A stretch of 64,000 nt of DNA from Vampirovibrio chlorellavorus (GCA_001858525.1 LAPX01000001.1:161473-225472); one strand, 5' to 3'. Positions 12,630 through 57,534 are shown, counted from the stretch's first letter. Notes: generated from the sequence alone by a model not told the origin. Numbers and translations: made by a program.

Positions 12630-13297
12630 ATGTTTCTAGCCCCCCCCCCCCCCCCCCCCCCCCCCGAAAACGCCTAAAGTCAGTCCTGGGCTTTACACTC
12701 GCTGAATTGCTGATTTCTCTGGCCATATTAGGGGTGATTGCTACCTTTACCATCCCTAAAATTTTATCCACCCAGCAAAACGCTCAGAACGTTGCCAAGG
12801 CAAAAGAAGCAGCAGCAATGATTTCAGAGGCTTTTCAGAAAGCAAAACTGAATGGTGTTATTACTTCAGCTACCAAACCCTCTGATTTAGCTGCTTACAT
12901 GAATTACGTCAGTCTGGACACTTCTGGCACACTCATGGATCACGTACCAGGCGTTGGTTCCAGGCCTTGTAATAATACATATCCCTGTATAAAACTTCAT
13001 AATGGCGGTATACTAAGTTTTGATGATGGGGCTACCTTTGGCGGCACTTCCAGTTTACATGCAATGTTTATTCTTTTTGATCCAGACGGGATTTACAGTG
13101 GTTCCACCGCGGACGGGCCTTCTAAATCTGTGCAATTTGCTATTTATTACGATGGCTTCTTAACGACCAGGGGGATAGTCAAAACCGGTACTGTTTATAG
13201 CTTGGGATCTCTTTCACCTGCTCCTAGCGAAGATCCATCTTGGTTTAGCTGGCAAGAATCTGGCGTCAGTACCATTGAGCCCGTAAGGCAAGAATAG
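12630..13297 (+). CDS. type IV pilin-like protein, paralogue 3. Its 5' end contains a 26-nt poly-C tract; ATG 12630 is out of frame with the pilin body in this assembly (phase OFF, or a homopolymer length error)
   Basis: ATG at 12630 (MFLAPPPPPPPP...) reaches a stop; the pilin frame (…PPP RKRLKSVLG|FTLAELLISLAIL… DPSWFSWQ) has no in-frame ATG after the stop at 12608. C25 or C28 would restore frame. Confidence 0.6.
12640..12665 (+). repeat. homopolymeric poly-C tract (about 26 nt) in the leader-coding region of pilin paralogue 3
   Basis: Read directly from the sequence. Confidence 0.95.
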
Positions 13298-23769: not shown

Positions 23770-24741
23770 TTGCTTCAGCCGTCGTCGTCTGCTTACCGGA
23801 AACCGTGGTTTATGTGGCCGTTTTTACAATTCCTGACCGTGGGAAACCCTCATTTTAGCGTACTGGCCTTTTACACGGTGCTGGTGCTTACCCTGTATGG
23901 TCTGCTGGGTGCCTTAATTTGGTTAAAACCGTTAGAGGTGGCCAAAAAGCCCTACCTGACCTGGGCCATCATGATTCCCATGTTGATCCTGCCCCTGTGG
24001 CTGGGGCCGGTGTTCTGGATTCTCACCGTGCTGCTGATTTCCATTTACGGATTCAAGGAATTCGCCAAAGGCACCGGGCTGTACGAACAAAAAGCCTATT
24101 GCCTGACCGTCTATGCCGTCATGATCGCCTTGGCTGGCTTTGCCATCATCAACGATTACGGGTTGTTTATGGTCACCCCCATCTGGGGCGTGGTGGCCCT
24201 GACCACCATTCCGGTCTTCCAGAATCGCTTTGAAAACGCCATCCAGAATATGGCCCTATCCGTGGTGGGGCTGGTTTATTTTGGCTGGTTTTTAGGGCAT
24301 CTGGGCTTTTTGGTGCGTTCCGAATATGGGCTGGGCTACCTGCTCTTTGTATTGATTTTCACCCAATTTAACGACGCCATGTGCTTTTTATGGGGCAAGC
24401 TCTTCGGAAAAACCCACTTTACGGCCATCTCTCCCAAGAAAACCATTGAAGGCTCCGTGCTGGCCCTGCTCAGTAGCATGGTCATCGCCTTTTTAAACTG
24501 GCCCATCGCTTTTCCGCATTTTGAATGGTGGTTAGTGGCCCTGGCCGGATTTGCGGTCAGTTTTGGCGGCCAAATGGGCGATTTGGTCATGTCCACCTTC
24601 AAACGGGATTTGGGGGTGAAGGACTTTGGCACCCTGCTACCCGGCCATGGCGGCATTCTGGATCGGGTGGACAGTCTGGTGTGGGTGTCACCCATCTTTT
24701 TCCATATGGTGCGTTATTTTCATTCCGGTTTTGGCTGCTGA
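23770..24741 (+). CDS. cdsA: phosphatidate cytidylyltransferase (CDP-diglyceride synthase)
   Basis: Multi-TM protein with C-terminal signature GKTHFTAISPKKTIEGS...GDLVMSTFKRDLGVKDFGTLLPGHGGILDRVDSL. Confidence 0.88.
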   Translation: MLQPSSSAYRKPWFMWPFLQFLTVGNPHFSVLAFYTVLVLTLYGLLGALIWLKPLEVAKKPYLTWAIMIPMLILPLWLGPVFWILTVLLISIYGFKEFAKGTGLYEQKAYCLTVYAVMIALAGFAIINDYGLFMVTPIWGVVALTTIPVFQNRFENAIQNMALSVVGLVYFGWFLGHLGFLVRSEYGLGYLLFVLIFTQFNDAMCFLWGKLFGKTHFTAISPKKTIEGSVLALLSSMVIAFLNWPIAFPHFEWWLVALAGFAVSFGGQMGDLVMSTFKRDLGVKDFGTLLPGHGGILDRVDSLVWVSPIFFHMVRYFHSGFGC

Positions 24742-25790
24742 TGACCAACATTCGAGAGGCCAGCGTGAATTTAAACCACTGGTGGCCAGTGGCTCACCGG
24801 GAGCGCTTTCCCCGCTCTGGCATCCGTGGTATTCGCATTGGCCCGATGGAGCTGGTGGTGGTTCGCACCGCCCAGGGTTTTGCCGTGTACGAGGACGCCT
24901 GCCCGCACAAACGGGTGCGCCTCAGTCAGTTCGGCACTCTGAAGCAACAACAACTACTGTGCACTTATCACGGCTGGGAATTTGAGACCCGGCAAGGTCA
25001 CTGTACCTCCCTTTGCGGCATGTCCGGCCAGCCGGAACAATTTAACCTGACCCCCTACCCGGTGCGGGAGTATGGGGGCTGGGTGTGGGCCTTCCCCGGA
25101 GAGGCGGCAGGGGCCGAAGCAACCCCCTTGCCCGATATCATGCCCGCCAACACCCCCCATCGCTTTTACCGGGTGCCCATGGAGGGCACCGTCAATTGCC
25201 ACTTCAGCTTTATTACCGAAAACGCCACGGATCTGTTTCACGCGGAATTGCACAAGGCCCAGCAGCCCTGGGCCAATCCCCAACTGCTTTCCATCGAGGA
25301 AACCGAGGCCAGCGTGATGGCCCGTTACCGGGTGGAGACCCCCAATCCGCTTTCGGCTTTGTTCACGGGCCGGGGCCAAAAAGAAGTCATCGTTCGCTAT
25401 GAGTACCCCTACATCCACCTATACGAAGCCGGGGGCGGCTTCTACCTGTTTGTGACCTACCTGCCCCATGATGCGGAGAATACCTATGTGTTCTCCTCCT
25501 TCTACTTTCCGCACATCCTGAAAATAGAGGCCCTGTCCCGCCTGCTGCTCCCCTTGGTCGAGCCCTTGCTCATCCCCATTCTCAATCAGGGCACCTTTCG
25601 GCAAGTCTTTTTACAAGACATTCGGGCGGTGGAGGAAGAACAGCGGGCTTACAACCTCACTGGCCAAGAAGCCAGCCGGGACCCCAACCCGGTCACCCAC
25701 GCCGTGCGAAGGGTCATCCTGAAGCAAACCGAGCACTGCCCACCCCTGCGTCCGGAACCACTCATCCGCCGACCGGGAGCCCCGCTGTGA
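24741..25790 (+). CDS. Rieske [2Fe-2S] non-heme iron oxygenase (PaO/Tic55-like)
   Basis: Rieske motif CPHKRVRLS...CTYHGWEF; start ATG overlaps the cdsA stop (TGATG); the ORF track's upstream extension overlaps cdsA and is not used. Confidence 0.8.
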   Translation: MTNIREASVNLNHWWPVAHRERFPRSGIRGIRIGPMELVVVRTAQGFAVYEDACPHKRVRLSQFGTLKQQQLLCTYHGWEFETRQGHCTSLCGMSGQPEQFNLTPYPVREYGGWVWAFPGEAAGAEATPLPDIMPANTPHRFYRVPMEGTVNCHFSFITENATDLFHAELHKAQQPWANPQLLSIEETEASVMARYRVETPNPLSALFTGRGQKEVIVRYEYPYIHLYEAGGGFYLFVTYLPHDAENTYVFSSFYFPHILKIEALSRLLLPLVEPLLIPILNQGTFRQVFLQDIRAVEEEQRAYNLTGQEASRDPNPVTHAVRRVILKQTEHCPPLRPEPLIRRPGAPL

Positions 25791-26455
25791 AGTTTGAGTA
25801 TCAGCACACCCCGGACTTTGGGCAGCCCCTCCGTCAGCGCTTGGGGAACTATCCCCGCATCCCGGATTTAAGCTGGGATTTTTTTCGCTGGCTGGGCAGC
25901 TGGCTGAGTGTGTTGTTCATTCGTACCCAATTCCGGTTGACCGTGGAAGGGCAATTGCCCCAAGCCAAACGACTAGCCATTGTGGCCAACCACCAATCGC
26001 ATCTGGATACGGCCACCCTGTTGGCGGCCTTGCCTTTCGTCCACCGAAAAAACTCTGTGGTGCTGGCCGCTGAGGATTATTTTTTCAGAAGCGCCCCCAA
26101 AGCCATGGCCGCTTCCCTGCTCTGTCAGGCCGTGGCATTTGATCGATTGCACTGGACTGCCGTGCGGGCATGGTATCAGCACCTTAAAAATCTGGAACAG
26201 GGCTGGCTGCTGTTTTATCCCAGTGGCAGTCGCCATTCCACCACCATTCAGGCCGGATTGCTGAAGATTCTCCTAAAAGAAGGCTGGCAAATTCTGCCCG
26301 CCCGCCTGGAAGGAGCCGATGCGGCCTGGCCCAGTCATGCCCCTCTGTGGCGTCCCTTTCGTCGTTTAAAAGTTACATTTTATGAGCCTTTTCAAGGGCA
26401 TGAAATAGACCGTTTAATAGAGAAACTAGAGCGAGAATTGTACCCGCATGAGTAA
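25787..26455 (+). CDS. 1-acyl-sn-glycerol-3-phosphate acyltransferase-family (PlsC-like) lysophospholipid acyltransferase
   Basis: HxxxxD motif (ANHQSHLD); GTG start overlapping the Rieske stop by 4 nt. Confidence 0.78.
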   Translation: MKFEYQHTPDFGQPLRQRLGNYPRIPDLSWDFFRWLGSWLSVLFIRTQFRLTVEGQLPQAKRLAIVANHQSHLDTATLLAALPFVHRKNSVVLAAEDYFFRSAPKAMAASLLCQAVAFDRLHWTAVRAWYQHLKNLEQGWLLFYPSGSRHSTTIQAGLLKILLKEGWQILPARLEGADAAWPSHAPLWRPFRRLKVTFYEPFQGHEIDRLIEKLERELYPHE

Positions 26456-27101
26456 GCAATCCCCCAACCCAGCAATAAAACCAGACTTGGGTCTGTATCA
26501 AACCAAGTACCTGTTGCGCAACGTGCTGCGCAACATCCCCGGTGTGGGACAGCTTTCCCCCAACCTGCTTTCTATCGCCGCGCTGGGGCCGGGCATGCTG
26601 GCTGCCGTATTTTTGTTTGAAGGCTACTGGCTGGGGGCCATCCTCAGCATTCTGGGACGAATGGTGATTAACACGCTGGACGGGCTGGTGGCAGAAGAGT
26701 TCAATAAAAAATCCCAGATCGGTGGCTACCTGAACCGTCTGCCCGGCGAGTTCACCGATATCCTGATCGTGCTGTCCCTGTACCCGCATGCTTCCATGCA
26801 CTGGGTTCTGGCCTTGATCATCCTGACCGGCTGGGTGCAGATATTTGGACTGCTGGGACTGGCCGCCGGAGGTTCTTCTCAATCGGTCGGCCCTTGCGGG
26901 CAAACCGATCGTCTGGCCATCCTGCTGATAGGCGCTTTACTGGCCCTATTCAAAGTGGATGTCTGGCCTACCCTGGTTCCCCTGATGTGCGCCGGGTGCA
27001 CCCTGACCATTGGCTTACGGATATTCCGCTCTATCCGGGAAATTCACGGTCTGGATCAGGCCAAACCGGAAACGATCAAACAGGATGCAGTCATCGAATG
27101 A
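26448..27101 (+). CDS. CDP-alcohol phosphatidyltransferase family protein
   Basis: Multi-TM; DG(x)2A(x)8G(x)3D(x)3D-like motif NTLDGLVAEEF...GGYLNRLPGEFTDILI; 8-nt overlap with upstream gene. Confidence 0.7.
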   Translation: MSKQSPNPAIKPDLGLYQTKYLLRNVLRNIPGVGQLSPNLLSIAALGPGMLAAVFLFEGYWLGAILSILGRMVINTLDGLVAEEFNKKSQIGGYLNRLPGEFTDILIVLSLYPHASMHWVLALIILTGWVQIFGLLGLAAGGSSQSVGPCGQTDRLAILLIGALLALFKVDVWPTLVPLMCAGCTLTIGLRIFRSIREIHGLDQAKPETIKQDAVIE

Positions 27102-28135
27102 TTTACATGAACTACGCGGGCATGGCCCCGTTACGATTCGGTGCATACCTGAAGGGCCTGCTGGCCCCCGAATTATTCGGCAATACTCGCCTGCCTCAAT
27201 GGTTTGCCCAAGCGGAGCGATTACGCGGTAAAGTAGCGGACTGGCTGGGTTGCCATGCCGATCAGGTGGCCTTTGTGCCTTCTACCAGCATGGCCCTGAA
27301 CACGGCCGCCTACAGCCTGAACTGGCAACCGGGCGATGTGGTGCTATACAACCCGAACGACTTTCCGGCCAATGTGCTGCCCTGGGAAAAACTGGCCCGC
27401 TTCGGGGTGAACCCGGTGGCGGTGGAAAACTGGCAAGACCCTTGGCCCAGCCGTACCCGCATGGTCAGTATTTCCACGGTCAATTACGCCACCGGCATCG
27501 AGCAACCCTGGCGAGACGTGATTCTGCAAGCCCAGGCTCGGGGTATCTGGACCTGTGTGGATGCCATTCAATCGGCAGGCGTTTTACCCAGCTGGAATCC
27601 CGATATCGATTTTTGGTGCGCGGGCACCCAAAAGTGGTTAGTGTCCGGCACAGGCCTGGCGGTGATGGTGCTGAGTCCCCGGGTGTTAAAGCAGTTGCAG
27701 CCGCCCTTCCCCAATTGGTTGAGTTTAAAAGAACCGGGCAAAGTCGCTTCCGGCTTGCTGGAAACCGCCCGGGCCTGGGAGTGTGGCTGGATTAGTCAGG
27801 CCGCGCTGGCCCGACTGGAGAGCAATCTGGATTACCTAACCAAAATCAGTTGGGAAGCCATTACGGAAAAAGTCAAACAACGCCGCAACTACCTGCATGA
27901 GCGTCTGCTGGATATGGGCTGGCACGTGGTTTCCTGCCCCAAACGCTGGTCTGGCATTGTGTCCATTGATCCGGGACCGGGGCGGGCGGAACTGTTGGTG
28001 AAAAGCGCCCAAAGCCGCAAAATTATCGTAACTCAGCGAGGCGATTACGTGCGACTGTCTCCCCATATTTTTAACCCCATGGGACACCTGAAAACCGTGA
28101 CCCAATGGCTGGCAGAGAGTTATACGGCCCTATGA
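27098..28135 (+). CDS. class V (PLP-dependent) aminotransferase-fold enzyme
   Basis: Putative PLP-lysine in CAGTQKWLVSGTG; ATGA overlap with upstream gene; the ORF track's longer 5' extension is rejected. Confidence 0.65.
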   Translation: MIYMNYAGMAPLRFGAYLKGLLAPELFGNTRLPQWFAQAERLRGKVADWLGCHADQVAFVPSTSMALNTAAYSLNWQPGDVVLYNPNDFPANVLPWEKLARFGVNPVAVENWQDPWPSRTRMVSISTVNYATGIEQPWRDVILQAQARGIWTCVDAIQSAGVLPSWNPDIDFWCAGTQKWLVSGTGLAVMVLSPRVLKQLQPPFPNWLSLKEPGKVASGLLETARAWECGWISQAALARLESNLDYLTKISWEAITEKVKQRRNYLHERLLDMGWHVVSCPKRWSGIVSIDPGPGRAELLVKSAQSRKIIVTQRGDYVRLSPHIFNPMGHLKTVTQWLAESYTAL

Positions 28136-28208
28136 CGGCCTGTAATGGCTTATAACGGCGGCCCCGATTCAAGAATTTTTTAAGCGGTCTTTTAAAGAGG
28201 ATGAACCA

Positions 28209-28964
28209 TTGAAATACCTACTCACCCGCATCCTGTTGCAAACCGTTGGTCGCCTGAGTGAAGGCATTCGCCTGGGCTGGCGCACCGGTTTTGATTCTGG
28301 AGTTATGCTGGAGTACATCTATGAAAATAAGCCCCGAGGTACCACCCCCTTGGGAGTATGGGTGGATCGTAAATTCATCTCTCACCCGGTGTGGGACGGG
28401 GTGCGCTCCCGTCGGAATCTACTGATTGGCCAACTGGAGGAGACTTTAACCCACTATGCTCACCCTGTTGTGTTTGATTTCGCTGCGGGCGTTGGCTCGT
28501 ATCTGTTTGCCCTTCCGCAAAACAAAGCCCAAATCATCGCCGGAGATTTTGCCCCCGAAGCGGTAGCTCAGGGCCAGAAAAAGGCCCAAACACTGGGTCG
28601 AAGCGATATCACCTTCCAGAAAAGCAACGCCTTTATGCCCAGCGAACTGGCCTGCCAGCAGGCGGATATTCTGGTCAGTTCCGGCTTTTTCGACATTCTG
28701 GTAAAAGACGAAGAAATCCTGAAGGTGCTGGAAAACGGGTCCAACATTACCCAACCCGGCGCCCGTTGGGTGTTTACCATTCAGGAGCATCACCCCGATT
28801 TGCGCCTGCTGAGGGAAACCATGGTGGATCTGCATCAGCAAGAGTGGGAACTGGTGCCTCGCCCCGCCGAGCAGTTGGCCGACTGGGCCAAACCGCATGG
28901 CTGGGTGCTGGAAAAACTGGAGCGCAATGACTTTTTCGCAGTGGGCACCCTAGTACGCCAATAG
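28209..28964 (+). CDS. class I SAM-dependent methyltransferase
   Basis: Motif I VFDFAAGVGSY and overall Rossmann MTase pattern. Confidence 0.7.
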   Translation: MKYLLTRILLQTVGRLSEGIRLGWRTGFDSGVMLEYIYENKPRGTTPLGVWVDRKFISHPVWDGVRSRRNLLIGQLEETLTHYAHPVVFDFAAGVGSYLFALPQNKAQIIAGDFAPEAVAQGQKKAQTLGRSDITFQKSNAFMPSELACQQADILVSSGFFDILVKDEEILKVLENGSNITQPGARWVFTIQEHHPDLRLLRETMVDLHQQEWELVPRPAEQLADWAKPHGWVLEKLERNDFFAVGTLVRQ

Positions 28965-29013
28965 TTAGTCCGCCAATAGAGCCCTGATAACCCAAAAGTG
29001 AGTTCATTCATTC

Positions 29014-29709
29014 ATGCCAACCAAGCCAAATCTTTATCATAATCCGGGAATCGCCTGGGTCAGCGGGGCCAGTGGATACTGGGGTCGTAAAACTGTCATG
29101 AGCCTGTTGCGCTTGAACTGGCAGGTCATCGCCCTCAGCCGACAAGAACCCCAGGATTTGCCGGAATGGGCCATGGCCCAGCAAAAAAGCCTGTTTTGGC
29201 AGCCCTTTGATCTGGAGTCCGAAGATTGGTCCAGCATCCTGAGCGACGTGCCAACACCGCAAGCGGTCTTTCATTGCGTGGGCATTTACGATGAGGATTT
29301 TGAGCGCATGCTGCGGGTCAACGTGGTGCAATCCACCCGCTTTCTGGAAGAGGCCAGCCAGCTCATGGAAACCCAGGGTGCCGGATGCCTAGGGGTCTAT
29401 CTGGGGCAAAATGGACGCCTGGGCCTGCCCGGACTGGGCAATTTCAGCGCCAGCCAGGGTGCCCTGTGGACCTGGTGCGAAGCCAAAGCCAGAACCCTGA
29501 AACAACAAAAATCCGGCCCCACCTTGAGTCTGGTCTTTCCGCAACGGGCCCCCTCTCACCTGCAAGCGGAACTGGCCAAACGCGTGGATCGTAAAGTCAA
29601 ACTAAACCCACCGGAAACGGCCGATGATCTGGTGGCCGGGGTCCTGCAAGGTAAAAGCCGGGTGGGTCGCAAGCCTTGGCTGGCCGGACTCTCCACGTTG
29701 TTGACCTAG
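29014..29709 (+). CDS. NAD(P)-binding short-chain dehydrogenase/reductase-like protein
   Basis: N-terminal glycine-rich VSGASGYWGRK dinucleotide-binding motif; about 230 aa. Confidence 0.6.
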   Translation: MPTKPNLYHNPGIAWVSGASGYWGRKTVMSLLRLNWQVIALSRQEPQDLPEWAMAQQKSLFWQPFDLESEDWSSILSDVPTPQAVFHCVGIYDEDFERMLRVNVVQSTRFLEEASQLMETQGAGCLGVYLGQNGRLGLPGLGNFSASQGALWTWCEAKARTLKQQKSGPTLSLVFPQRAPSHLQAELAKRVDRKVKLNPPETADDLVAGVLQGKSRVGRKPWLAGLSTLLT

Positions 29710-29781
29710 ACAAAATGAAAAGGCCTTGGCGGCAGCTATTTTGGCTTTTCCGAAGTGAGAAAACGGCCAAGCGACAAGAGC

Positions 29782-29813
29782 AAGCTCGGGATCAAAATCC
29801 CTGAGCTCTTTTT
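29782..29813 (+). terminator. rho-independent terminator ending the lipid operon
   Basis: AGCTCGGGA ... TCCCTGAGCT stem followed by CTTTTTTAA. Confidence 0.5.
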
Positions 29814-30140
29814 TAATTTGTAAAGAAATATAAAGCATTTGCAGGGCTTTGTAAAACAAAGCCTAAAAACAAACGTCATGCGCTTTAACGTCCTATAACG
29901 GATGAGACAAATCGATTCAATTTGAAGGAAGAAGCTGCGAGATTTCAATCTCAATCAGCAGAAGGCCTAAAGTTTTGGGGAAGGGGACCGACTAAACATG
30001 TTGGATTCATCTTTTTGGATTTTTGAAAACTTGCGGCTGACTCGGCATGCGATGCCAACGCTCAGCCACCCCCTTCTTCTCCAAAAACAAACGAGTCTCT
30101 CTCCAAATCCAATACAGCACGAAACCTGACTAATACGAAA

Positions 30141-33100
30141 GTGGGAAGTGCCATCATGCCTAGTAATTTTTCGCCCATCCACGCCTTTTACAAACTGCTG
30201 GTGTACACCGCCATGGCCCCCCTGCGGGATCAGGCCTTTCAGGGCACCCGTAAAGCCAAGATCTCCGACACTGAGAAAGAAGCCCTGGCCTCCGGCTCCG
30301 TGGGCTTTGAGCGAGAAATCCTGAGTGGACACCCGGATTGGCGCAAGCTGCTGGATCTGCCCAAACCGCACCTGAACGAAATCGAGCAGGCCTTTCTGGA
30401 TGGGCCGGTGGAACAACTGTGTGCCCTATTGGATGACTGGAAAATCAGGACAGAACTGAAAGATTTACCCCCGGAAGCCTGGGCTTTTTTGAAAGAAAAA
30501 GGCTTCTTCGGCATGATCATTCCCAAGGAATACGGCGGCTTGGGCTTTTCCGCCAGAGCCCACTCGGAAGTGGTCTTGAAGCTGGCCAGCCGCAGTACCA
30601 CCGCATGCGTCACCACCATGGTACCCAATTCGCTAGGCCCGGCAGAGTTGCTGATTCGGTATGGAACGGATGAGCAAAAAAATCATTACCTACCTCGCCT
30701 GGCCAAAGGCGAAGAAATTCCCTCCTTTGCACTGACCGAACCCGATGCAGGATCTGATGCGTCCAGCATGACCGCCCATGGGGTGGTCTGTGAGCGCGAT
30801 GGCCAACTGGGCATATTGCTGAATTGGGACAAGCGCTATATTACCCTCAGCCCCATTGCCACCCTGTTGGGGGTGGCCTTTAAACTGCGCGATCCGGATT
30901 GTCTGCTGGGCCAGAAAAAAGAGCTGGGCATCACGCTGGCCCTCATCCCCACCAATGCCTCGGGCGTAGAAATTGGCCGCCGTCACAACCCCTTGGGCAT
31001 TCCCTTTATGAACGGTCCAACCCACGGCAAAGACGTGTGGATCACCCTGGATCAGATCATCGGGGGCCGGGAGTACGCCGGGCAAGGCTGGCGCATGCTG
31101 ATGGAATGCTTATCGGTGGGACGCTGTATTTCCCTGCCGGCATTGTCGGTGGGTTCAGCCAAACTGGTCAGCCGCATGACCGGTGCTTACAGCCGGGTGC
31201 GCAAGCAATTCAAGGTATCCATCAACCAGTTTGAAGGCGTAGAAGAACTACTGGCCCGCATGGCCGGTACCACCTATCTCATGGAGGCCTGCCGCATCGC
31301 CACCCTGCAAATGCTGGATCGGGGCGAGCATCCCACCATTCTGTCCGCCATCCTGAAGTACCACATGACCGAGTACGGGCGCAAAATCGTCAACGACGGC
31401 ATGGACGTGCTGGGCGGAAAAGCCATCTGCGAAGGGCCAGACAACCTGATTGCCCCGCTCTATCACGGCATTCCCATCGGCATCACCGTGGAAGGGGCCA
31501 ACATCCTGACCCGCAACATGATCATTTTCGGGCAAGGATCGGTGCGCTCGCATCCCTATCTGCTCAAAGAAATCGAAGCGGCCCGTCTGGACGATGAAAA
31601 TCAGGCCCGCGCCGAGTTCAGCGATTTAATGGCCCAGCACGTTCGCCACAGCGTGGAAAACACCATCCGCAGCCTGGTTTTTGGCCTGACCAACGGACAC
31701 GGCAGCGGTGTGCCCAATGCCGATCAAACCGAGGCCTATTACTTCCGGCACATCAACCGCCTCAGCGCCGCCTATGCCACGTTGGCCGATAACATCCTGA
31801 TGCTGCTGGGCGACAGCGTGAAACGCAAGGAACGCATTTCCGCCTTGCTGGGCGATGCCATGAGTTACCTGTTTATGGCCTCCGCGGTGTTGCGCCATTA
31901 TCAGGCCCACGGGCGACTTCAGGATGAACGGCCTTTGGTGCACTGGGCTTGTCAAACCCTGTTGCATCAAGCCGAAGAGAGCATGGATCGTCTCTTGCAA
32001 AACTTCCCCAACCCCATTCTGGGGGCCTTGCTGCGACCCATCATTTTCCCGTTGGGTCGACGCATTCAACTGCCCAGTCACCGTCAGGATCGCAAGCTGG
32101 CCCAACTGCTGGTCACGCCCGGCGCACTGCGGGATCGGCTCACCCAGGGCATTTACCTACCGACCAGCGACAGCGAACCACTGGCCCAACTGGAGCAATG
32201 CATGGCCATGGCCGTGCAAGCCGATGTGCTGGAAGCCACCATTCGCCAGGCCAAAAAAGAAGGCCGCCTGAGCGCACAAACCCCAGAGGCCCTGTTGGAA
32301 GAAGCCACCGCCCAGAAAATCATCAGCGCCCAGGAACGGGCCCTGTTGAAGCAAGTGGAAGTGCTGCGAAAACAGGTGTTGGCCGTCGATGATTTTGACC
32401 TTCACTTCAATTTCCTGGAAAAAAAAAGGGCATTTGTCAGCGGGAGCCAGCTAAAGACGGTTTATCCACTGGGAACCCGCTGGGATCTTGAGTTACCGAA
32501 CCAAAATTTGGTGGCATTATTTGAAGCCGCCGTGGATCGATACCGGCATTTGCCCTGTATGGATTCCATGGGTAAAAAGTACGACTATCAGGAAATGGGC
32601 AGTCTGGTGAACCGAGCCGCCGCTGGGCTGCAAGGTTTGGGCATTCAAAAGGGCGATCGCATCGGCCTGTACATGCCCAATACGCCTTACTACCCCATTC
32701 TGTTTTTTGCCGCCCTGAAAGTGGGCGCGGTAGTGGTCAATGTCTGCCCCATGCACACCCTGAGCGAACTTCGGGAGCAATTGGCTGACAGCGGGACGCA
32801 AACCCTGATTACACTGGATCTAAAGGATTCTTTCAACAAAACGGCCCAGCTACTGGATGAAGGTCTGCTTTCCCGAATGATCGTGTGCAAAATGGAAGAG
32901 GTGCTCCCCTTCTTTAAATCGCACGCCTACCGGCTGTTTCGCAGTTCACAAATTGCCCGCACAGAAGATTGGAGAAAGGACTGGGGAAAAAGCAGTAAAG
33001 CGGGCAAAAATCATAAAGAATCCGTGGCAGAAGTCTCCTCCTCTGGCCTGCGACTGGGCTTCCGGGATCTCATTCACAGCAAGCATGTGTTGCAACCCGT

Positions 33101-34292
33101 GCCCATCGTTCCCCAAGATGTGGCCCTGTTGCAATACACCGGCGGAACCACTGGTACGCCCAAAGGGGCTATGCTGACCCACGCCAATCTGGTGGCCAAT
33201 ATTTGCCAGATTGAAGAGTTCTTTGGATTCTCTGCCAACAAACCCCAGTGTGAAGCACTCCTCCGGCCGGGCCAAGAACGGGTGCTGGCCACCATCCCCT
33301 ACTTCCATATTTTCGGGCTGGCCGTGGCCATGCTCTCCAGCCTGAAAATGGGCGCGGAACTGATCATCCTGCCCGACCCGCGCAACATTACGGAAACCCT
33401 GAAAACCATCCACGAGAAAAAGCCCACCCTGTTTCCAGCGGTTCCCCGGCTCCTGCAGGCCATTTGTGAGCATCCCAAATTGGGCCAATTTGACCTCAGC
33501 AGTCTGCAAACGGTTATCTCCGGTGGCGCCGCTATCCCTCTCTCCGTGCATCAGGCCTTTGAACAGGTGACTGGCAAGCCGGGGCTGATCAAACAGGGCT
33601 ATGGGCTCACGGAAACAGCCCCGGTGGCTGCGGCCAATCCGCCCTTTGGCACCAACAAACCGGAATCCATTGGTTTGCCCTTGCCCCAAACCCGCATTCA
33701 AATCGTGGATCCCCAAGATCCGGATCGGGTGCTGGCCATGGGCGAAGTGGGAGAAATCTGCATCAGCGGCCCACAGGTGATGAAAGGCTACTACCAGCGT
33801 CCGGAGGAAACCGAGCAGATCCTCAGAAACGGCTGGTTTTTCACCGGGGATTTGGGATACCTGGATGACGATCATTACCTGCACATCGTGGACCGCAAAA
33901 AACGACTGATTCTGGTGAATGGCTTTAACGTCTACCCCACTCAACTGGAACACGCCATTACCCGACATCCGGCGGTGGCCGAGTGTATGGTCATCAGCGT
34001 GCCTGACGCCCGATCCGGTGAAGCGGCCAAGGCTTTTGTCCGACTCAAGAACGGGCATCCTCTCAATAGCCAGCAGCTCAAAGATTTCCTGAGCGAGTAT
34101 CTCAGCCGCATTGAAGTGCCCAAGTACGTGGAGTTCATACACTTTGAACTGCCCAAAACGGCGGTCGGGAAACCCGATTGGCGGGCCATGCAGGAACGGC
34201 AAAAGCTGACCGAGCTGCCGCACGGCGACCACCCCGGAGAACACATGATTACCGACATCAACGAAGGACTGGATATGGAGCAGGCATCATGA
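30141..34292 (+). CDS. fusion protein: acyl-CoA dehydrogenase (FadE-like, residues about 1-760) plus long-chain fatty-acid-CoA ligase (FadD-like, about 770-1383)
   Basis: The N-terminal part aligns along E. coli FadE as recalled from memory (KPDWRKL...EQAFLDGPVE...RYGTDEQKNHYLPRLAKGEEIP...GQGWRML..ECLSVGR...DDFD). The C-terminal part carries the AMP-binding motif YTGGTTGTPKGAMLTH and FadD-like N-terminus. A9 tract lies at the junction. Confidence 0.85.
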   Translation: MGSAIMPSNFSPIHAFYKLLVYTAMAPLRDQAFQGTRKAKISDTEKEALASGSVGFEREILSGHPDWRKLLDLPKPHLNEIEQAFLDGPVEQLCALLDDWKIRTELKDLPPEAWAFLKEKGFFGMIIPKEYGGLGFSARAHSEVVLKLASRSTTACVTTMVPNSLGPAELLIRYGTDEQKNHYLPRLAKGEEIPSFALTEPDAGSDASSMTAHGVVCERDGQLGILLNWDKRYITLSPIATLLGVAFKLRDPDCLLGQKKELGITLALIPTNASGVEIGRRHNPLGIPFMNGPTHGKDVWITLDQIIGGREYAGQGWRMLMECLSVGRCISLPALSVGSAKLVSRMTGAYSRVRKQFKVSINQFEGVEELLARMAGTTYLMEACRIATLQMLDRGEHPTILSAILKYHMTEYGRKIVNDGMDVLGGKAICEGPDNLIAPLYHGIPIGITVEGANILTRNMIIFGQGSVRSHPYLLKEIEAARLDDENQARAEFSDLMAQHVRHSVENTIRSLVFGLTNGHGSGVPNADQTEAYYFRHINRLSAAYATLADNILMLLGDSVKRKERISALLGDAMSYLFMASAVLRHYQAHGRLQDERPLVHWACQTLLHQAEESMDRLLQNFPNPILGALLRPIIFPLGRRIQLPSHRQDRKLAQLLVTPGALRDRLTQGIYLPTSDSEPLAQLEQCMAMAVQADVLEATIRQAKKEGRLSAQTPEALLEEATAQKIISAQERALLKQVEVLRKQVLAVDDFDLHFNFLEKKRAFVSGSQLKTVYPLGTRWDLELPNQNLVALFEAAVDRYRHLPCMDSMGKKYDYQEMGSLVNRAAAGLQGLGIQKGDRIGLYMPNTPYYPILFFAALKVGAVVVNVCPMHTLSELREQLADSGTQTLITLDLKDSFNKTAQLLDEGLLSRMIVCKMEEVLPFFKSHAYRLFRSSQIARTEDWRKDWGKSSKAGKNHKESVAEVSSSGLRLGFRDLIHSKHVLQPVPIVPQDVALLQYTGGTTGTPKGAMLTHANLVANICQIEEFFGFSANKPQCEALLRPGQERVLATIPYFHIFGLAVAMLSSLKMGAELIILPDPRNITETLKTIHEKKPTLFPAVPRLLQAICEHPKLGQFDLSSLQTVISGGAAIPLSVHQAFEQVTGKPGLIKQGYGLTETAPVAAANPPFGTNKPESIGLPLPQTRIQIVDPQDPDRVLAMGEVGEICISGPQVMKGYYQRPEETEQILRNGWFFTGDLGYLDDDHYLHIVDRKKRLILVNGFNVYPTQLEHAITRHPAVAECMVISVPDARSGEAAKAFVRLKNGHPLNSQQLKDFLSEYLSRIEVPKYVEFIHFELPKTAVGKPDWRAMQERQKLTELPHGDHPGEHMITDINEGLDMEQAS

Positions 34293-35470
34293 CCCAACAG
34301 GCTGTCATAATCGATTATGTGCGTACCCCCTTTGCCAAGGCCGTAGAACCCACCTCGGGCAGCTCCAAACAGGGAAAATTCGCCAACCTGCTGCCCGATG
34401 ACATGGTGGCTGCTCTCATTGCCGAAAGCCTCAAACGCACCGGCATCCATCCCAGCCACGTGGAAGCCCTGCTGCTGGGCTGTGTGCATCAGGAAGCAGA
34501 GCAAGGGCTGAATCTGGCCCGCATGATTGTGCTCAATCCGGATGCCGGTTTGCCACACAGTGTGGGCGGGGTCAGTGTGGATCGCTTTTGCGGATCGTCG
34601 ATGCACATTATCGCCGATGCCAAAAACGCCATTCTGGCGGGTGAGGCCGAGGTCATGCTGTGCGCCGGGGTGCAGTCGATCAGCCGCATTCCCATGGCGG
34701 GCTGGAACCCCATGCTCAACCCCAAAGTGTATGGGGGCAACGCCAAAGGCTTTATGAATATGGGCATCACCGCTGAAAATCTGGCTGCCCAATTCAAAAT
34801 TTCCCGGCAGGCTCAGGAGGAATTTGCCTTACAGTCGCATCAGAAGGCGGCCAAAGCCCAGCAGGCCGGTTACTTTGCCTCGGAAATTATGCCACTGGCC
34901 GGATTACCGTTGGATGACAGCGTGCGCTCCGATAGCTCGCTGGAGCAACTGCAAAAACTGAAACCGGCCTTTCAGCAGGATGGCACGGTGACCGCCGGAA
35001 CATCCTCTCCCCATACCGATGGGGCTTCCCTGGTGGTAGTGGCTTCTCACCACTATGCCCAACAGCATCAACTACCCATTTTAGCGCATATCAAGGCCTT
35101 TGCCGGGTCCGGCTGCGAACCGGAGATCATGGGCATTGGCCCGGTCAGCGCCATCCAGAAAGCGCTGCAACGAGCCGGATTAAGTATGCAAGACATTGGC
35201 GTGGTGGAATTAAACGAAGCCTTCGCCGTGCAAACCCTGGCCGTCTTGCAGGAACTGGATCGGGTGGGGCTGAGTGTGGATGCAGCCAAACTCAATATAG
35301 ATGGCGGGGCCATTGCTCTGGGTCATCCACTGGGCGCCTCCGGGGCCCGCATTACCGGCAAAGTGGCCCGCCTGCTGCAACGCACGGGTCAACGCTACGG
35401 ACTGGCCGCCATGTGTATCGGCGGCGGTCAAGGGGTGGCTATCGTTCTGGAGAACCCCAACATCCACTAA
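34289..35470 (+). CDS. fadA: acetyl-CoA C-acyltransferase (3-ketoacyl-CoA thiolase)
   Basis: Thiolase active-site regions (VDRFCGSS..., NEAFA..., GGAIALGHPLGASGARI, CIGGGQG); ATGA overlap with the upstream stop. Confidence 0.9.
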   Translation: MTQQAVIIDYVRTPFAKAVEPTSGSSKQGKFANLLPDDMVAALIAESLKRTGIHPSHVEALLLGCVHQEAEQGLNLARMIVLNPDAGLPHSVGGVSVDRFCGSSMHIIADAKNAILAGEAEVMLCAGVQSISRIPMAGWNPMLNPKVYGGNAKGFMNMGITAENLAAQFKISRQAQEEFALQSHQKAAKAQQAGYFASEIMPLAGLPLDDSVRSDSSLEQLQKLKPAFQQDGTVTAGTSSPHTDGASLVVVASHHYAQQHQLPILAHIKAFAGSGCEPEIMGIGPVSAIQKALQRAGLSMQDIGVVELNEAFAVQTLAVLQELDRVGLSVDAAKLNIDGGAIALGHPLGASGARITGKVARLLQRTGQRYGLAAMCIGGGQGVAIVLENPNIH

Positions 35471-35521: not shown

Positions 35522-38152
35522 ATGGCGGAAACACCGTTCATTCGAAAAGCGGCTGTTCTGGGCGCGGGGGCCATGGGCTCCGGTATTGCCGCCCAATTGG
35601 CCAACGCCGGGGTACAGGTGTATCTGCTGGATATTGTGCCGCCCAATGCCCCCAGTGAAGATGCCTCTGCCCGAAATCTCATTGCCAACAACGCCATCCA
35701 GCGCATGTTGAAAGCCACGCCGGCCACCGATCCGCTGAACGCCGGCTTCATGCACCCGGACAACGCCAAACGCATTACCCCCGGCAATCTGGAAGATCAT
35801 CTGGCCGAAGCGGTGGCCGATGCCGATTGGGTGGTGGAAGTGGTCATTGAGAATCTGGACATCAAACGAAACCTCTACGCCCGACTGGAAACCCTCTGTA
35901 AACCCACAGCGGTGATCTCCTCCAACACCTCCACCATCCCGCTTGAAACCCTGATTGAAGGGCGATCGATGCCCTTTAAAAAACGGTTTATCATCACCCA
36001 CTTTTTCAACCCGCCCCGCTTTATGCACCTGCTGGAAATCGTCAGCGGGCCAGATACCGATGCGGACATTGCCCCGCAAATGCAAACCTTTGGCGATGTA
36101 CATCTGGGTAAAAACGTCATTATCTGCAAAGACACCCCGGCCTTTTTGGCCAATCGTATTGGCATTTACTTCATGTTTCGGGCCATTACCGAGGCCATTG
36201 AGCAGGACATGCCCATTGAAATTGTAGACGCCATTCTGGGCAAGCCCATTGGCTACCCCAAGGAAGGCATTTTTGGCCTGCTGGATCTGGTGGGCATTGG
36301 CATTATTCCGCTGGTTACGGAAAGCTTGTTGAAAACCCTGCCCGCCGATGACGCATTCCGCAAGTTTGATCACGAAAAAGGACTGACCCTGGTGGGCAAT
36401 TTACTCAAAGCAGGATGTACCGGCCGCAATGCCCCCAACGGCGGATTTTACCGCATGCAAAAAAACGCCGATGGCACCAGGCAAAAACTGGCTATTCGCC
36501 TGAGTGATGGCGGCAACTACCCGGTGGAAAAACCCAAACTTGCCTGCGTGAAAGCGGCCCGAAAAGACGGGCCCAAAGCCATGTTTGAAACAGACGATCG
36601 CTACGGACGTTTCGCCTGGGTGGTGGTGCGGGATACCTTGTTGTATGCGGCCACGTTAATCCCCGAAATTGCCGATGACATCGCCGAGGTGGACGCCGCT
36701 TTGCGTGGCGGATACAACGCCCACTGGGGCCCCTTTGAGCAGATTGATCAAGTGGGGGTGGACTGGTTCTGTAAGCGGGTGCAAGCCGATGGCATTGCGC
36801 TACCACCTGCCTTGAAACTGGCTCAGAATCGACCCTTTTACAAAACGGTGAACGGCAAACTGCTTCGGCTGGTGTTTGATTTTGAGCGCCAACAAGCCGA
36901 ATATGCCCCCTTGCTGGATCGACCGGGCTGCCTCAACTTCGGGGAAATCAAACACAGCCAAAACGTTTTAGTCCATCACCATTCGGCCAGCCTGTGGGAT
37001 TTGGGTGATGGGGTCACCTGTCTGGAATTTCACTCCAAAATGAACACCCTGGACCCATCCGTGTTGCACGTGGTCAATGAAAGCGTGCGGTTTATGACTC
37101 AAAACGCCGCCCAATACAAAGCCATGGTCATATACAACGCGGAAAAAAACTTCTCGCTGGGGGCCAATTTGGGCCTTATTGACGCCGGCTTTCAGCTCAT
37201 CCGCCAGCCCTTCATGCGGCAAACCGGCTTAAGCCAACTCTTTGGCCTTGGATTGTACAAAGGCATTGAATGCCTGGTGTTTCAGGGGCAAAGCGTGTTC
37301 AGCGCCTTGCGCTATGCGCCATTCCCGGTGGTGGGCGCTCCCAACGGCATGGCCATCGGGGGCGGCTGCGAAATTTTAATGCACTGCGACGCCCTGCAAC
37401 TAAACGCGGAAGCCTACATGGGGCTGGTGGAAAGCGGGGTGGGTCTTATCCCCGGCTGGGGCGGCTGCGCCCGCTATCTGGCCCGATGCCAGGAGGAAGC
37501 AAACCGCAAAGGTGGGGTGATTCCCCCGGTTCGCAAAGCCTTTCAGGCCATTCTGATGCCCCAACTGGCCGTGTCCACTTCCGGGCAGGACGCCCAAGGC
37601 AAACTGTGGGGCAGCCCGCAAGATGGCATAACCATGAACCCGGATCGGGTGCTGGCCGATGCCAAAGCAAAAGCGCTCTCCCTGATTCCAAACTATCAGC
37701 CGCCACAACCCAGCACCTATCGCTTGCCTGGCCCCAGCGGCAAAGCGGCCTTGCAAATGGCCATTGATGATTTCTATGCCAAAGGCGATGCAACCTGGCA
37801 CGATGTGGTGGTGGCCGATGCCCTGGCCGACGTGTTGACCGGGGGTCCCACCAGCAGCGCACAAACTGTATCCGAAAACGATTTGTTACAGCTGGAGCGG
37901 GAACAGTTTTTATCCCTGATTCGGCTGAAGCAAACCCAAAAACGCATTGCCCACACCCTGAAAAGCGGCAAGCCACTGCGAGAAGATCCCGCCCGTGTGA
38001 GCGATTCACTGGATGAGTTACGAAAGGCTCGTACCGTCAAAGCACTGGCCAAACGAACTGTGACCGGGCTGCCCTTGATTGGGCTGGATGCCCTGCAACT
38101 GCGCTGGATGGCCGAGTTTACAGCGATTTTACTGAAGAAATTCGCTCCCTAG
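35522..38152 (+). CDS. bifunctional 3-hydroxyacyl-CoA dehydrogenase / enoyl-CoA hydratase (HAD domain N-terminal, crotonase domain C-terminal)
   Basis: NAD-binding AAVLGAGAMGSGIAAQLA at the N-terminus; crotonase-fold VVGAPNGMAIGGGCEILMHCD...GLIPGWGG in the C-terminal half. Confidence 0.88.
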   Translation: MAETPFIRKAAVLGAGAMGSGIAAQLANAGVQVYLLDIVPPNAPSEDASARNLIANNAIQRMLKATPATDPLNAGFMHPDNAKRITPGNLEDHLAEAVADADWVVEVVIENLDIKRNLYARLETLCKPTAVISSNTSTIPLETLIEGRSMPFKKRFIITHFFNPPRFMHLLEIVSGPDTDADIAPQMQTFGDVHLGKNVIICKDTPAFLANRIGIYFMFRAITEAIEQDMPIEIVDAILGKPIGYPKEGIFGLLDLVGIGIIPLVTESLLKTLPADDAFRKFDHEKGLTLVGNLLKAGCTGRNAPNGGFYRMQKNADGTRQKLAIRLSDGGNYPVEKPKLACVKAARKDGPKAMFETDDRYGRFAWVVVRDTLLYAATLIPEIADDIAEVDAALRGGYNAHWGPFEQIDQVGVDWFCKRVQADGIALPPALKLAQNRPFYKTVNGKLLRLVFDFERQQAEYAPLLDRPGCLNFGEIKHSQNVLVHHHSASLWDLGDGVTCLEFHSKMNTLDPSVLHVVNESVRFMTQNAAQYKAMVIYNAEKNFSLGANLGLIDAGFQLIRQPFMRQTGLSQLFGLGLYKGIECLVFQGQSVFSALRYAPFPVVGAPNGMAIGGGCEILMHCDALQLNAEAYMGLVESGVGLIPGWGGCARYLARCQEEANRKGGVIPPVRKAFQAILMPQLAVSTSGQDAQGKLWGSPQDGITMNPDRVLADAKAKALSLIPNYQPPQPSTYRLPGPSGKAALQMAIDDFYAKGDATWHDVVVADALADVLTGGPTSSAQTVSENDLLQLEREQFLSLIRLKQTQKRIAHTLKSGKPLREDPARVSDSLDELRKARTVKALAKRTVTGLPLIGLDALQLRWMAEFTAILLKKFAP

Positions 38153-48363: not shown

Positions 48364-48844
48364 AAACGCTTCTCCTATTCAGTATGAACAAAGTGGTCAA
48401 AAAAAAACTTCAGTTGAGGGTTCGAGTCGTAAGTAAAACAGCAAATGGCTCAGTGAGACTTGTTTCAGGGTCACTGGCCCATTGCCAAGCTCTTGAGTCA
48501 TTAACTCCTGAGCCGTAAAACCGGGGGTGAGGATCTCAAACTGCCATCTATTGTACAGAAAATGCGGTATTTTCAAAGCGCTGTTTTCAATCCTTGGGGG
48601 ATAAGCCGCTTGAAGCCTATGCCTGAAAACGACTGCCCGTGTATGATTCTGGGGATTTGTTAACTTTATCGAATTTTTTTTCGAATTAACGCTTGCCTTT
48701 TTGCCAAGGAAGAGTATCATAGAATTTACGTTCGATAGAAAAAGCGTTCGAGAGCAATTAAAACACCGCTCATCAATCGCTTACCTGTCAATCAATCGAA
48801 CCCCATTACAATCACTCTCATTTAGAGAACACGCCGCCAGCAAG

Positions 48845-56418: not shown

Positions 56419-56715
56419 CCAACAACTCCAGTATGGAAATACTGTCCTATCATACCATTTTTACCAAATCGAACCGGCTTTGGCAGCGGGAAAAAATGCA
56501 TTGTTCATGGCCCCAAAATCAAGGGCTGGTTAGCATCCTTTTGGATTACCCGAAATAGGGGAGCAAACTGTCGCAAAAAATGGGCATAATAAGTTAAATT
56601 GGGACTGTCAAAAAAAAAGCAAACTTTGTGAACGCCCCTTCCCTTCTCTCTGTTTAAAGTTTCTGTGTTTGCCGCCCCCCCCAAAAGTGAGGAACTCGCT
56701 AATTGAGAGCCACCC

Positions 56716-57534
56716 ATGATTGATCGAATTTTTGCCGCCCCCAAAGGCACAGCGCTGGAAGCCGGAATCGATTTCGCACTGGCTCATGGGCTTGATTACG
56801 AGATTCCGACCTTTTACGAGGTGGAGAACCTGGACAACCGTGAAGCGGAAATAACCCGCTATCGACATCTGTTGAGAGACTTTCAGGGTATCCTGTCCAT
56901 GCATGGGCCTATTTTTGACACCAACGTGGTCAGCCTCGATCCGGAAATCCTGAAAATCTCTCAGCATCGCTACCGACAAGCCATTGATGTGGCCAAAACG
57001 CTGGATGTGCGGTATCTGGTCTTTCACTCCCAGTGGACGCCCATTTACAGAGCGGCCAATGCCACTCGTCTTTGGGTAAACAAGGTCACTGACTTTTGGC
57101 TCAAGCTGCTAGAGGAAGAGGTCAAGGATTCCAACCTGACCATTCTGATTGAAAACTTTCTGGATGACGACCCAGAGTCAATTCAAACCATACTCACCCG
57201 GGTAAACTCCCCCCATCTCAAGGCCTGTGTGGATATCGGGCATATCAATATTTTTTCCCAACGCTCTCCGATTGATTGGCTGCAAGAACTGGGAGGACAA
57301 GTGGCCTATATCCACGCCCATAACAACGGGGGAGCGCTGGATAGTCATGATTCCTTTGAAAAAGGCCTGATTGACATGGAGGGATTCCTCAACCACCTGG
57401 CCCTGCTGCCACAAAAGATTCATTTGGCCATCGAAACCGCCACCATCGAGGGGCTGGCCAGCAGCTACGAACTGATCAAACCGCATCTGTCGGTTCAAAA
57501 AGAGCAATTCTTGGCCAAAAGCTTCCTGATTTAG
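56716..57534 (+). CDS. sugar phosphate isomerase/epimerase (xylose isomerase-like TIM barrel)
   Basis: Family-typical LVFHS, ENF and DIGH metal-ligand regions; a C8 tract lies 35 bp upstream of the start. Confidence 0.7.
   Translation: MIDRIFAAPKGTALEAGIDFALAHGLDYEIPTFYEVENLDNREAEITRYRHLLRDFQGILSMHGPIFDTNVVSLDPEILKISQHRYRQAIDVAKTLDVRYLVFHSQWTPIYRAANATRLWVNKVTDFWLKLLEEEVKDSNLTILIENFLDDDPESIQTILTRVNSPHLKACVDIGHINIFSQRSPIDWLQELGGQVAYIHAHNNGGALDSHDSFEKGLIDMEGFLNHLALLPQKIHLAIETATIEGLASSYELIKPHLSVQKEQFLAKSFLI

Follow-up and report, generated by a model that had tools for sequence, protein, structure and literature searches.

The question raised by this locus is whether two enzymes of fatty acid breakdown, an acyl-CoA dehydrogenase of the FadE type and a FadD-like acyl-CoA ligase, are joined in a single polypeptide, or whether a run of nine adenines (A9) at their junction points to something else. 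The locus lies in a stretch of 64,000 nucleotides (nt) from Vampirovibrio chlorellavorus (GCA_001858525.1, LAPX01000001.1:161473-225472), called the window in the following; Vampirovibrio and its kin are predatory, non-photosynthetic relatives of the cyanobacteria. A preliminary description of the window had proposed a natural in-frame FadE::FadD fusion of 1383 amino acids. Judged from the sequences now compared, the fusion is a real, evolutionarily maintained, clade-specific and hitherto undescribed joining of two well-known enzymes, and not new chemistry. Very probably it is a genuine maintained gene that gives rise to one FadE-ligase polypeptide of ~150 kDa and stands first in a three-gene beta-oxidation operon.

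The coding sequence is one uninterrupted open reading frame (ORF) on the plus strand (30141..34292), which counts 1383 codons when opened mechanically at GTG 30141. The proposed length holds for the open frame; the protein itself probably starts at ATG 30156 (MPSNFSP...) and has 1378 residues. The sequence GGGAAG lies 7 nt 5' of this ATG, and the MPSNFSP-type start is shared with the orthologues P0002 and P0004-P0006. The 96%-identical orthologue P0001 starts with MKVGSAIM, while the window reads ACG AAA GTG GGA... in this interval (30132-30158). Since the upstream ATG of P0001 is an ACG here, the start has probably moved to ATG 30156. In the leader (29710..30155), no convincing sigma-70-like promoter was found on the plus strand, and the sole promoter-like match lies on the minus strand.

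As their domains and signature motifs indicate, both modules are complete. Pfam assigns Acyl-CoA_dh_N, Acyl-CoA_dh_M, Acyl-CoA_dh_1 and ACDH_C, in order, to residues 100-752, with 68, 51, 57 and 327 bits against gathering cutoffs of 22.9, 33.3, 22.4 and 25, and AMP-binding (310 bits) and AMP-binding_C (63 bits), both above their gathering scores, to residues 794-1344. The dehydrogenase motif TVEGAN is encoded at 31485-31502; its surroundings, ITVEGANILTR, recur unchanged in E. coli FadE and do not vary among the 34 fusions. The glutamate of this motif presumably acts as the catalytic base, a role which we take from the (Y/V)EG(T/A)N motif of the acyl-CoA dehydrogenase (ACAD) family. Besides its P-loop, the ligase carries KQGYGLTE, FTGDLGY, the hinge-region motif DRKKRLILVNGFNVYP and PKTAVGKPDW, which holds the C-terminal catalytic lysine. 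TVEGAN, the P-loop, GYGLTE, DRKKRLILVNGFNVYP and the C-terminal lysine are invariant across the 34 aligned fusion sequences.

The comparison with E. coli K-12 bears out the earlier statement that the first half is collinear with FadE minus its N-terminal region. By BLASTP, residues 14-748 (numbering of the 1378-residue protein) match residues 54-793 of the 814-residue FadE with 51% identity, and the first ~53 residues of FadE have no counterpart. Like FadE (b0221) of the PRK09463/PRK13026 subfamily, this half shows the four-domain layout including the bacterial ACDH_C over ~740 aligned residues; unlike FadE, it also lacks the last ~20 residues after DDFD and carries a 620-residue C-terminal ligase instead. 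It belongs to the FadE-type subfamily according to the NCBIfam model NF007000 (PRK09463; 1039 bits, cutoff 600) and exceeds the cutoff of NF009586 as well (987 versus 608 bits). The model NF038187 (FadE_coli) is reached with only 936 bits against a cutoff of 1300, and its profile positions 1-78 are unmatched. The best PDB match of this half is ACAD9 (E = 1e-44).

The second half is more distant from its E. coli counterpart: residues 783-1350 match residues 23-554 of the 561-residue FadD with 37% identity. It has AMP-binding and AMP-binding_C, the P-loop TGGTTGTPKGA, GYGLTE and DRKKRLILVNGFNVYP in common with FadD and the free ANL ligases, but differs from free ligases in having no start codon of its own, its N-terminal tail now being an inter-domain hinge. 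Many NCBIfam models of long-chain and dicarboxylate CoA ligases match, each below its curated cutoff (FadD NF006523/PRK08974, 394 versus 884 bits; PimA TIGR03205, 415 versus 706; PRK05605, 430 versus 766).

Fusions of this kind are found in other genomes. A search of 5.8 billion clustered proteins (clusters at 90% identity) yielded 34 clusters (P0001-P0034) of 1292-1541 residues, which are 59-96% identical to the window protein and all carry the six Pfam domains. They originate from NCBI, JGI, ENA and Logan assemblies and, where a name is given, are called 'acyl-CoA dehydrogenase [Vampirovibrio sp.]' or 'Cyanobacteria bacterium'. Beyond them come only stand-alone FadE proteins, with identity down to ~55%; split alleles of ~770 residues are absent among the listed relatives of at least 59% identity. 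Among the species-representative genomes with the fusion are V. chlorellavorus Vc_AZ_2 (92%), Vampirovibrio sp. JTS-AC367 (81%) and Vampirovibrionales OFTM381 (65%). The junction peptides vary widely in length and sequence between lineages and are in frame every time. An alignment scan of the junction region in metagenomes added two fusion loci, L091 and L092, neither with a Lys-Lys at the hinge; the other 78 loci match the ligase part only, apparently as free ligases, and add little power for a test of the A-run.

The pairing appears to be rare. When 1.84 billion representatives (50% identity) were scanned with residues 200-1383 by HMMER (filter only), P0009 was the sole representative spanning both halves among the best 150 matches. 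Since any FadE-type/FadD-type fusion would rank near the top, the pairing appears confined to one 50% cluster; no independent fusion was seen elsewhere in these best 150 matches, where distant ACAD-type/ligase fusions would not show. The other long proteins among them are non-ribosomal peptide synthetases or fusions of acyltransferase, alpha/beta-hydrolase and ligase. In P0328, P0290 and P0282 (868-1375 residues), an acyltransferase, an alpha/beta-hydrolase (Hydrolase_4) and an AMP-binding ligase are combined, a domain content suggestive of lipid turnover. No description of a FadE-FadD or ACAD/AMP-binding fusion was found in the literature searched, and the V. chlorellavorus genome paper reports the presence of beta-oxidation genes in no more detail (PMC4451040). 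Consecutive pathway enzymes in one polypeptide and one operon also occur in FadB/FadJ and in the FadN-type proteins of Bacillus and Staphylococcus; these widespread fusions join steps 2 and 3, whereas the window fusion joins activation and step 1 and, within the reach of these searches, is limited to one cluster at 50% identity. One protein of this kind is encoded two genes 3' of the fusion.

At each of the ten loci retrieved by protein identity, a thiolase gene comes next after the fusion, and then a gene for a ~870-residue dehydrogenase/hydratase with the dehydrogenase first, the domain order of the Staphylococcus FadB/FadN type. The thiolase ATG overlaps the fusion stop TGA (34290-34292) within the tetranucleotide ATGA (34289-34292), and this 4-nt overlap is seen in 8 of the 10 fetched loci as in the window. 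Headed by the fusion, these three genes form an operon that is conserved across Vampirovibrionales, and its three polypeptides would provide the activation as well as each of the four steps of beta-oxidation. With 34 clusters, a conserved operon and a single spanning representative among the best 150, the fusion is natural and unusual, as had been proposed. Table 1 lists the features of the locus.

Table 1. Features of the fusion locus and of the genes downstream, in window coordinates.
Feature	Position	Strand	Remarks
Intergenic leader 5' of the fusion gene	29710..30155	+	446 nt
Fusion coding sequence (probable start)	30156..34292	+	1378 amino acids + stop; FadE-type acyl-CoA dehydrogenase joined to acyl-CoA ligase
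FadE-type acyl-CoA dehydrogenase module	30156..32399	+	ends at conserved VDDFD; Pfam, NF007000, BLASTP
Glu of TVEGAN motif, presumed catalytic base	31491..31493	+	by analogy with ACAD motif
Hinge LHFNFLEKKR between modules	32400..32429	+	sequence and length variable across family; low model confidence
A9 homopolymer	32419..32427	+	ctg GAA AAA AAA AGG = E K K R; heptamer A_AAA_AAA in zero frame
Acyl-CoA ligase module (ANL/FadD-like)	32430..34289	+	former N-terminal tail AFVSGSQLKTVYPLGTRW, then AMP-binding, AMP-binding_C
Adenylate-forming P-loop motif TGGTTGTPKGA	33138..33170	+	translation LQYTGGTTGTPKGA; invariant in family
Thiolase (acetyl-CoA C-acyltransferase)	34289..35470	+	TIGR01930, 413 bits, cutoff 241
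3-Hydroxyacyl-CoA dehydrogenase/enoyl-CoA hydratase	35522..38152	+	876 amino acids, dehydrogenase first; NF052272, 432 bits, below cutoff 999

The origin of the hinge can be traced in free ligases, of which those closest to the second half (P0122-P0157) have ~600 residues and 46-54% identity to it. They start with short, often lysine-rich tails followed by the motif ALADG.SL...YP.GT.W, e.g., MQKDEKQKEKKPALANGESLPAHYPEGIQW and MTQSAASARPALADGETLKGFYPQGTEW, or MQKDEKQKEKKPALANGE... in P0125. The fusions carry the same motif after the hinge (EKKRAFVSGSQLKTVYPLGTRW in the window, K(P/T)A(L/I)ADGKSLK..YP.GTRW in most others), so that the hinge is the former N-terminal tail of the ligase, including the Lys-Lys of the A-run. 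The preliminary description had recognised the FadD N-terminus (MKKVWLNRYP) behind the junction and had placed the A-run where an ancestral ligase start, ATG-AAA-AAA, would be. BLASTP aligns E. coli FadD only from residue 23, and it is the closer free ligases that align with the hinge; their lysine-rich tails ahead of the shared motif are consistent with a run at the former ligase start, but the specific ATG-AAA-AAA ancestor is not demonstrable.

Two free ligases head operons of the order ligase, thiolase, dehydrogenase/hydratase, and a separate ACDH_C-type FadE lies near them, either divergently adjacent (L089, 52% identical to the window FadE half) or 3 kb upstream. After DDFD, ~20 residues follow in E. 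coli FadE and ~30 in the FadE of L089. In the simplest history, a fadD-fadA-fadN operon would have received fadE at its 5' end, in frame, and the FadE C-terminal tail of ~20-30 residues as well as the ligase start would have been lost on this occasion. The order of dehydrogenase and ligase genes recurs without fusion in Gallionellaceae and other betaproteobacteria (L004, L008, L012-L016, L018, L025, L029). There, however, the two are separate ORFs (~3 nt apart in L004), the ligase is of another ~600-residue subfamily (35-40% identity), and the ~810-residue FadE keeps its hydrophobic N-terminus. The betaproteobacterial ligases end in KR..V....F...I..LY.G(H/R), and a ~830-residue FadB-like gene is often found further 3'.

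The A-run was described correctly as nine adenines at the junction, and its occurrence in the family can be followed at the DNA level. The string 'GAA AAA AAA A' is identical in nine assemblies (the window, L001, L002, L172, L082, L083, L084, L171 of the 65% clade and L081 of the 60% clade), the flanking synonymous sites of which differ. L062 has an A9 thirteen codons further on in the hinge, so that ten assemblies from at least three deep lineages carry a run of exactly nine, in frame; L088 has an in-frame A8 at the homologous site. No run is present in L091, L092 and L085, the last being the sister of the A9-bearing L171. Five loci examined at the DNA level have at most A6 at the junction, and about 21 of the 34 fusion hinges have no Lys-Lys. 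In a neighbour-joining tree rooted on the free ligases, the run-bearing lineages are scattered and include basal ones, and the run is thus probably ancestral and was lost repeatedly. Where it was lost, the entire hinge has diverged.

Since homopolymers are error-prone in sequencing, and the window holds another suspicious run, C26 at 12640-12665, the length of the A-run could have been miscalled and fadE and fadD could in fact be separate genes, a case that the preliminary description had named as its own refutation. In addition, L171, at ~4x coverage, shows an in-frame TAG inside the FadE part. We hold this explanation to be most improbable and, in effect, already refuted. The fused frame recurs in 34 clusters from NCBI, JGI, ENA and Logan assemblies, and ~21 junctions are without Lys-Lys and allow no long A-run, so that a homopolymer miscall cannot explain it; no split alleles stand among the listed relatives of at least 59% identity, and the hinge of the window offers neither a start codon nor a ribosome-binding site for a separate ligase. 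The statement that no internal restart site exists is reasonable but not absolute, as TTG/GTG codons stand in frame at 32508-32513, without a Shine-Dalgarno-like sequence. An internal start for a free ligase was looked for among the relatives and rejected: no in-frame ATG, GTG or TTG lies near the run except in L171, where an ATG directly follows A9. Heritable phase variation at a contingency locus, in which replication slippage at A9 would toggle the ligase half, and by polarity the operon, in subpopulations, seems hardly credible either. A9 runs are hypermutable in replication as in transcription (PMC1088944). In principle, the junction was rightly called a frameshift hotspot. All ten A9-bearing assemblies are, however, in phase, L088 is fixed at an in-frame A8, and neither off-phase alleles nor polymorphism of tract length was found, although consensus assemblies could hide minority variants.

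The alternative that deserves the closest look, though we consider it unlikely, is programmed recoding. The conserved A9 would then be a selected slippage site, either transcriptional as in Thermus dnaX or by -1 ribosomal shifting on A_AAA_AAA, and would let one gene yield, in a fixed proportion, the entire fusion as well as a protein of FadE alone (~765-778 residues, ending 8-21 residues past the run). Precedents exist: the A9 of T. thermophilus dnaX leads to ~50% shorter product (PMC1088944), and ribosomes slide on iterated AAA codons (PMC4363877). In a large share of the 108 bacterial genomes analysed, moreover, selection against coding A/T runs first shows at a length of nine (PMC1088944). 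From this threshold and the Thermus precedent, some slippage at A9 is physically likely. With the tract set to A8 or A10 in silico, translation ends after 770 or 783 residues, with tails of 8 and 21 residues, close to the 10-25 codons stated earlier; the predicted frame-specific tails are ...EKKGHLSAGAS (GHLSAGAS) and ...EKKKGICQREPAK (GICQREPAK...). As in dnaX (tau/gamma), the window has an in-frame sense-strand A9 where slippage truncates after a complete N-terminal unit; unlike in dnaX, the run is absent from most family members, and we speak of a resemblance only. The persistence of the run in nine assemblies and on scattered, partly basal branches speaks for selection, with a codon identity at identical residues of 0.41-0.55 between most run-bearing genes and synonymous sites near saturation. 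Of the 35 Lys columns conserved in seven genes, only 5 use AAA throughout (two of these are the junction), and of 44 conserved Glu columns, only 7 use GAA throughout, which gives a joint chance of ~1e-3. The maximal possible run is realised in 9 of the 12 lineages with a hinge Lys-Lys, versus ~0.27 expected per lineage; the binomial p is ~7e-4 with all lineages independent and 0.015-0.04 with the Vampirovibrio clade collapsed, both from rough lineage counts. No second sense-strand run of at least nine A was found in ~177 kb of neighbouring coding sequence, where 1.6 are expected. Against this stands a codon bias towards A (AAA 0.35-0.80, GAA 0.52-0.78). With the peptide EKKT and a bias of 0.6-0.8 for AAA/GAA, chance alone restores the observed run in 20-33% of the synonymous shuffles of each gene. 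A Fisher combination of the per-gene shuffle p-values gives ~0.2, which is conservative, these values being coarse and bounded below at ~0.2-0.3; the lineage count was used in its place. The majority of members without Lys-Lys, among them L085 next to its A9-bearing sister, cannot have an A-run at all, which makes the feature dispensable. RNA folding 3' of the run shows no structure beyond that of shuffles (z = -0.37), and no conserved upstream Shine-Dalgarno-like stimulator is present. A conserved stop 8 codons past the run in the A8 frame was rejected as a signal, since the conserved Leu-Lys codons (xTA AAx or CTG AAG) bring it about. The conservation of A9 beyond codon bias is thus only suggestive.

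We return to the reading of a genuine, maintained fusion gene. In this reading, a flexible hinge of ~10 residues joins the two modules. Free fatty (or dicarboxylic) acids of the prey would be activated by the ligase to acyl-CoA, which the tethered dehydrogenase would oxidise to enoyl-CoA; thiolase and the bifunctional dehydrogenase/hydratase would complete the cycle. Tethering would ensure 1:1 stoichiometry and co-localisation, and possibly substrate hand-over. The A9, encoding Glu-Lys-Lys of the former tail, would mostly be a historical relic kept by AAA/GAA codon bias, and some transcript or ribosome slippage at this site would be expected to produce a minor FadE-only species. An AlphaFold2 model of residues 440-1383, built on the 34-sequence alignment, has both halves folded (mean predicted local distance difference test, pLDDT, 75; predicted template modelling score, pTM, 0.55), and pLDDT falls below 50 in the hinge at model residues 311-314 (window residues 750-753), between the well-folded halves.

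Several points weigh against this reading or parts of it. Channeling between the modules is speculative, the pTM of 0.55 giving no confident inter-domain arrangement, and the order of domains, dehydrogenase before ligase, is the reverse of the pathway order. That the product is a single polypeptide in vivo, we infer from the ORF and its conservation. 'Long-chain fatty acid' as the substrate is likewise only inferred, because every curated NCBIfam ligase equivalog is below its cutoff. The conservation of A9, finally, is somewhat above the codon-bias prediction and is not fully explained by a relic.

A few further observations concern homopolymers and neighbouring genes. Deep inside the coding regions of the window, no A/T run of nine or more occurs besides that at the junction; further plus-strand A9 runs (48399-48407 and 56610-56618) lie at the extreme 3' ends of the minus-strand ORFs 48397..48720 and 56608..57027, where the coding strand shows them as T9 at the stop codon or beside it. 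The in-frame TAG of L171 (ENA ERZ1029167 NODE_4610) is located at ~2940-2950, where orthologues have Glu (LQEI*AARLE), and splits its fusion into calls of 473 and 863 residues. At ~3791-3802, the same contig reads GAA AAA AAA ATG TCG ATT GCG GAC, which resembles a free-ligase start. The C26 run of the window lies just 5' of a type IV prepilin-like N-terminus (...RKRLKSVL G FTLAELLISLAILGVI; region 12630-12740). An ATG at 12630 does not share the frame of the pilin at C26 (MFLAP8ENA*), but would do so at C27 or C24. The tract is a candidate for a phase-variable poly-C in a pilin or pseudopilin gene, or else an assembly artefact. Directly 5' of the fusion gene, a co-directional cluster on the plus strand (24525-29709) looks like one for lipid head-group or acyl modification; it comprises a Rieske/VanA_C oxygenase, an acyltransferase, a CDP-alcohol phosphatidyltransferase, a class-V aminotransferase, a Methyltransf_20 methyltransferase and a short-chain dehydrogenase.

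The chemistry of beta-oxidation belongs to the textbooks. How FadD hands over to FadE is poorly understood, though, and a natural covalent FadE-ligase pair offers a ready-made system for substrate hand-over between activation and the first oxidation. FadE-type dehydrogenases are without a close solved structure, ACAD9 being only the best PDB match, and the window protein, having no hydrophobic N-terminus of the E. coli type, is a candidate for a soluble FadE. The compact three-gene operon may be of use for engineering. The A9 hinge bears on whether slippage has a use beyond the genes of replication and of mobile elements; if recoding should hold true, slippage would give tethered FadE-ligase plus free FadE and tune the ratio of activation to oxidation, in the manner of tau/gamma but in a metabolic enzyme. 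Public annotation as 'acyl-CoA dehydrogenase' only hides the ligase function in metabolic reconstructions. Vampirovibrionales prey on lipid-rich algae, which makes fatty-acid catabolism ecologically relevant for them, and the fusion may serve as a marker of this clade.

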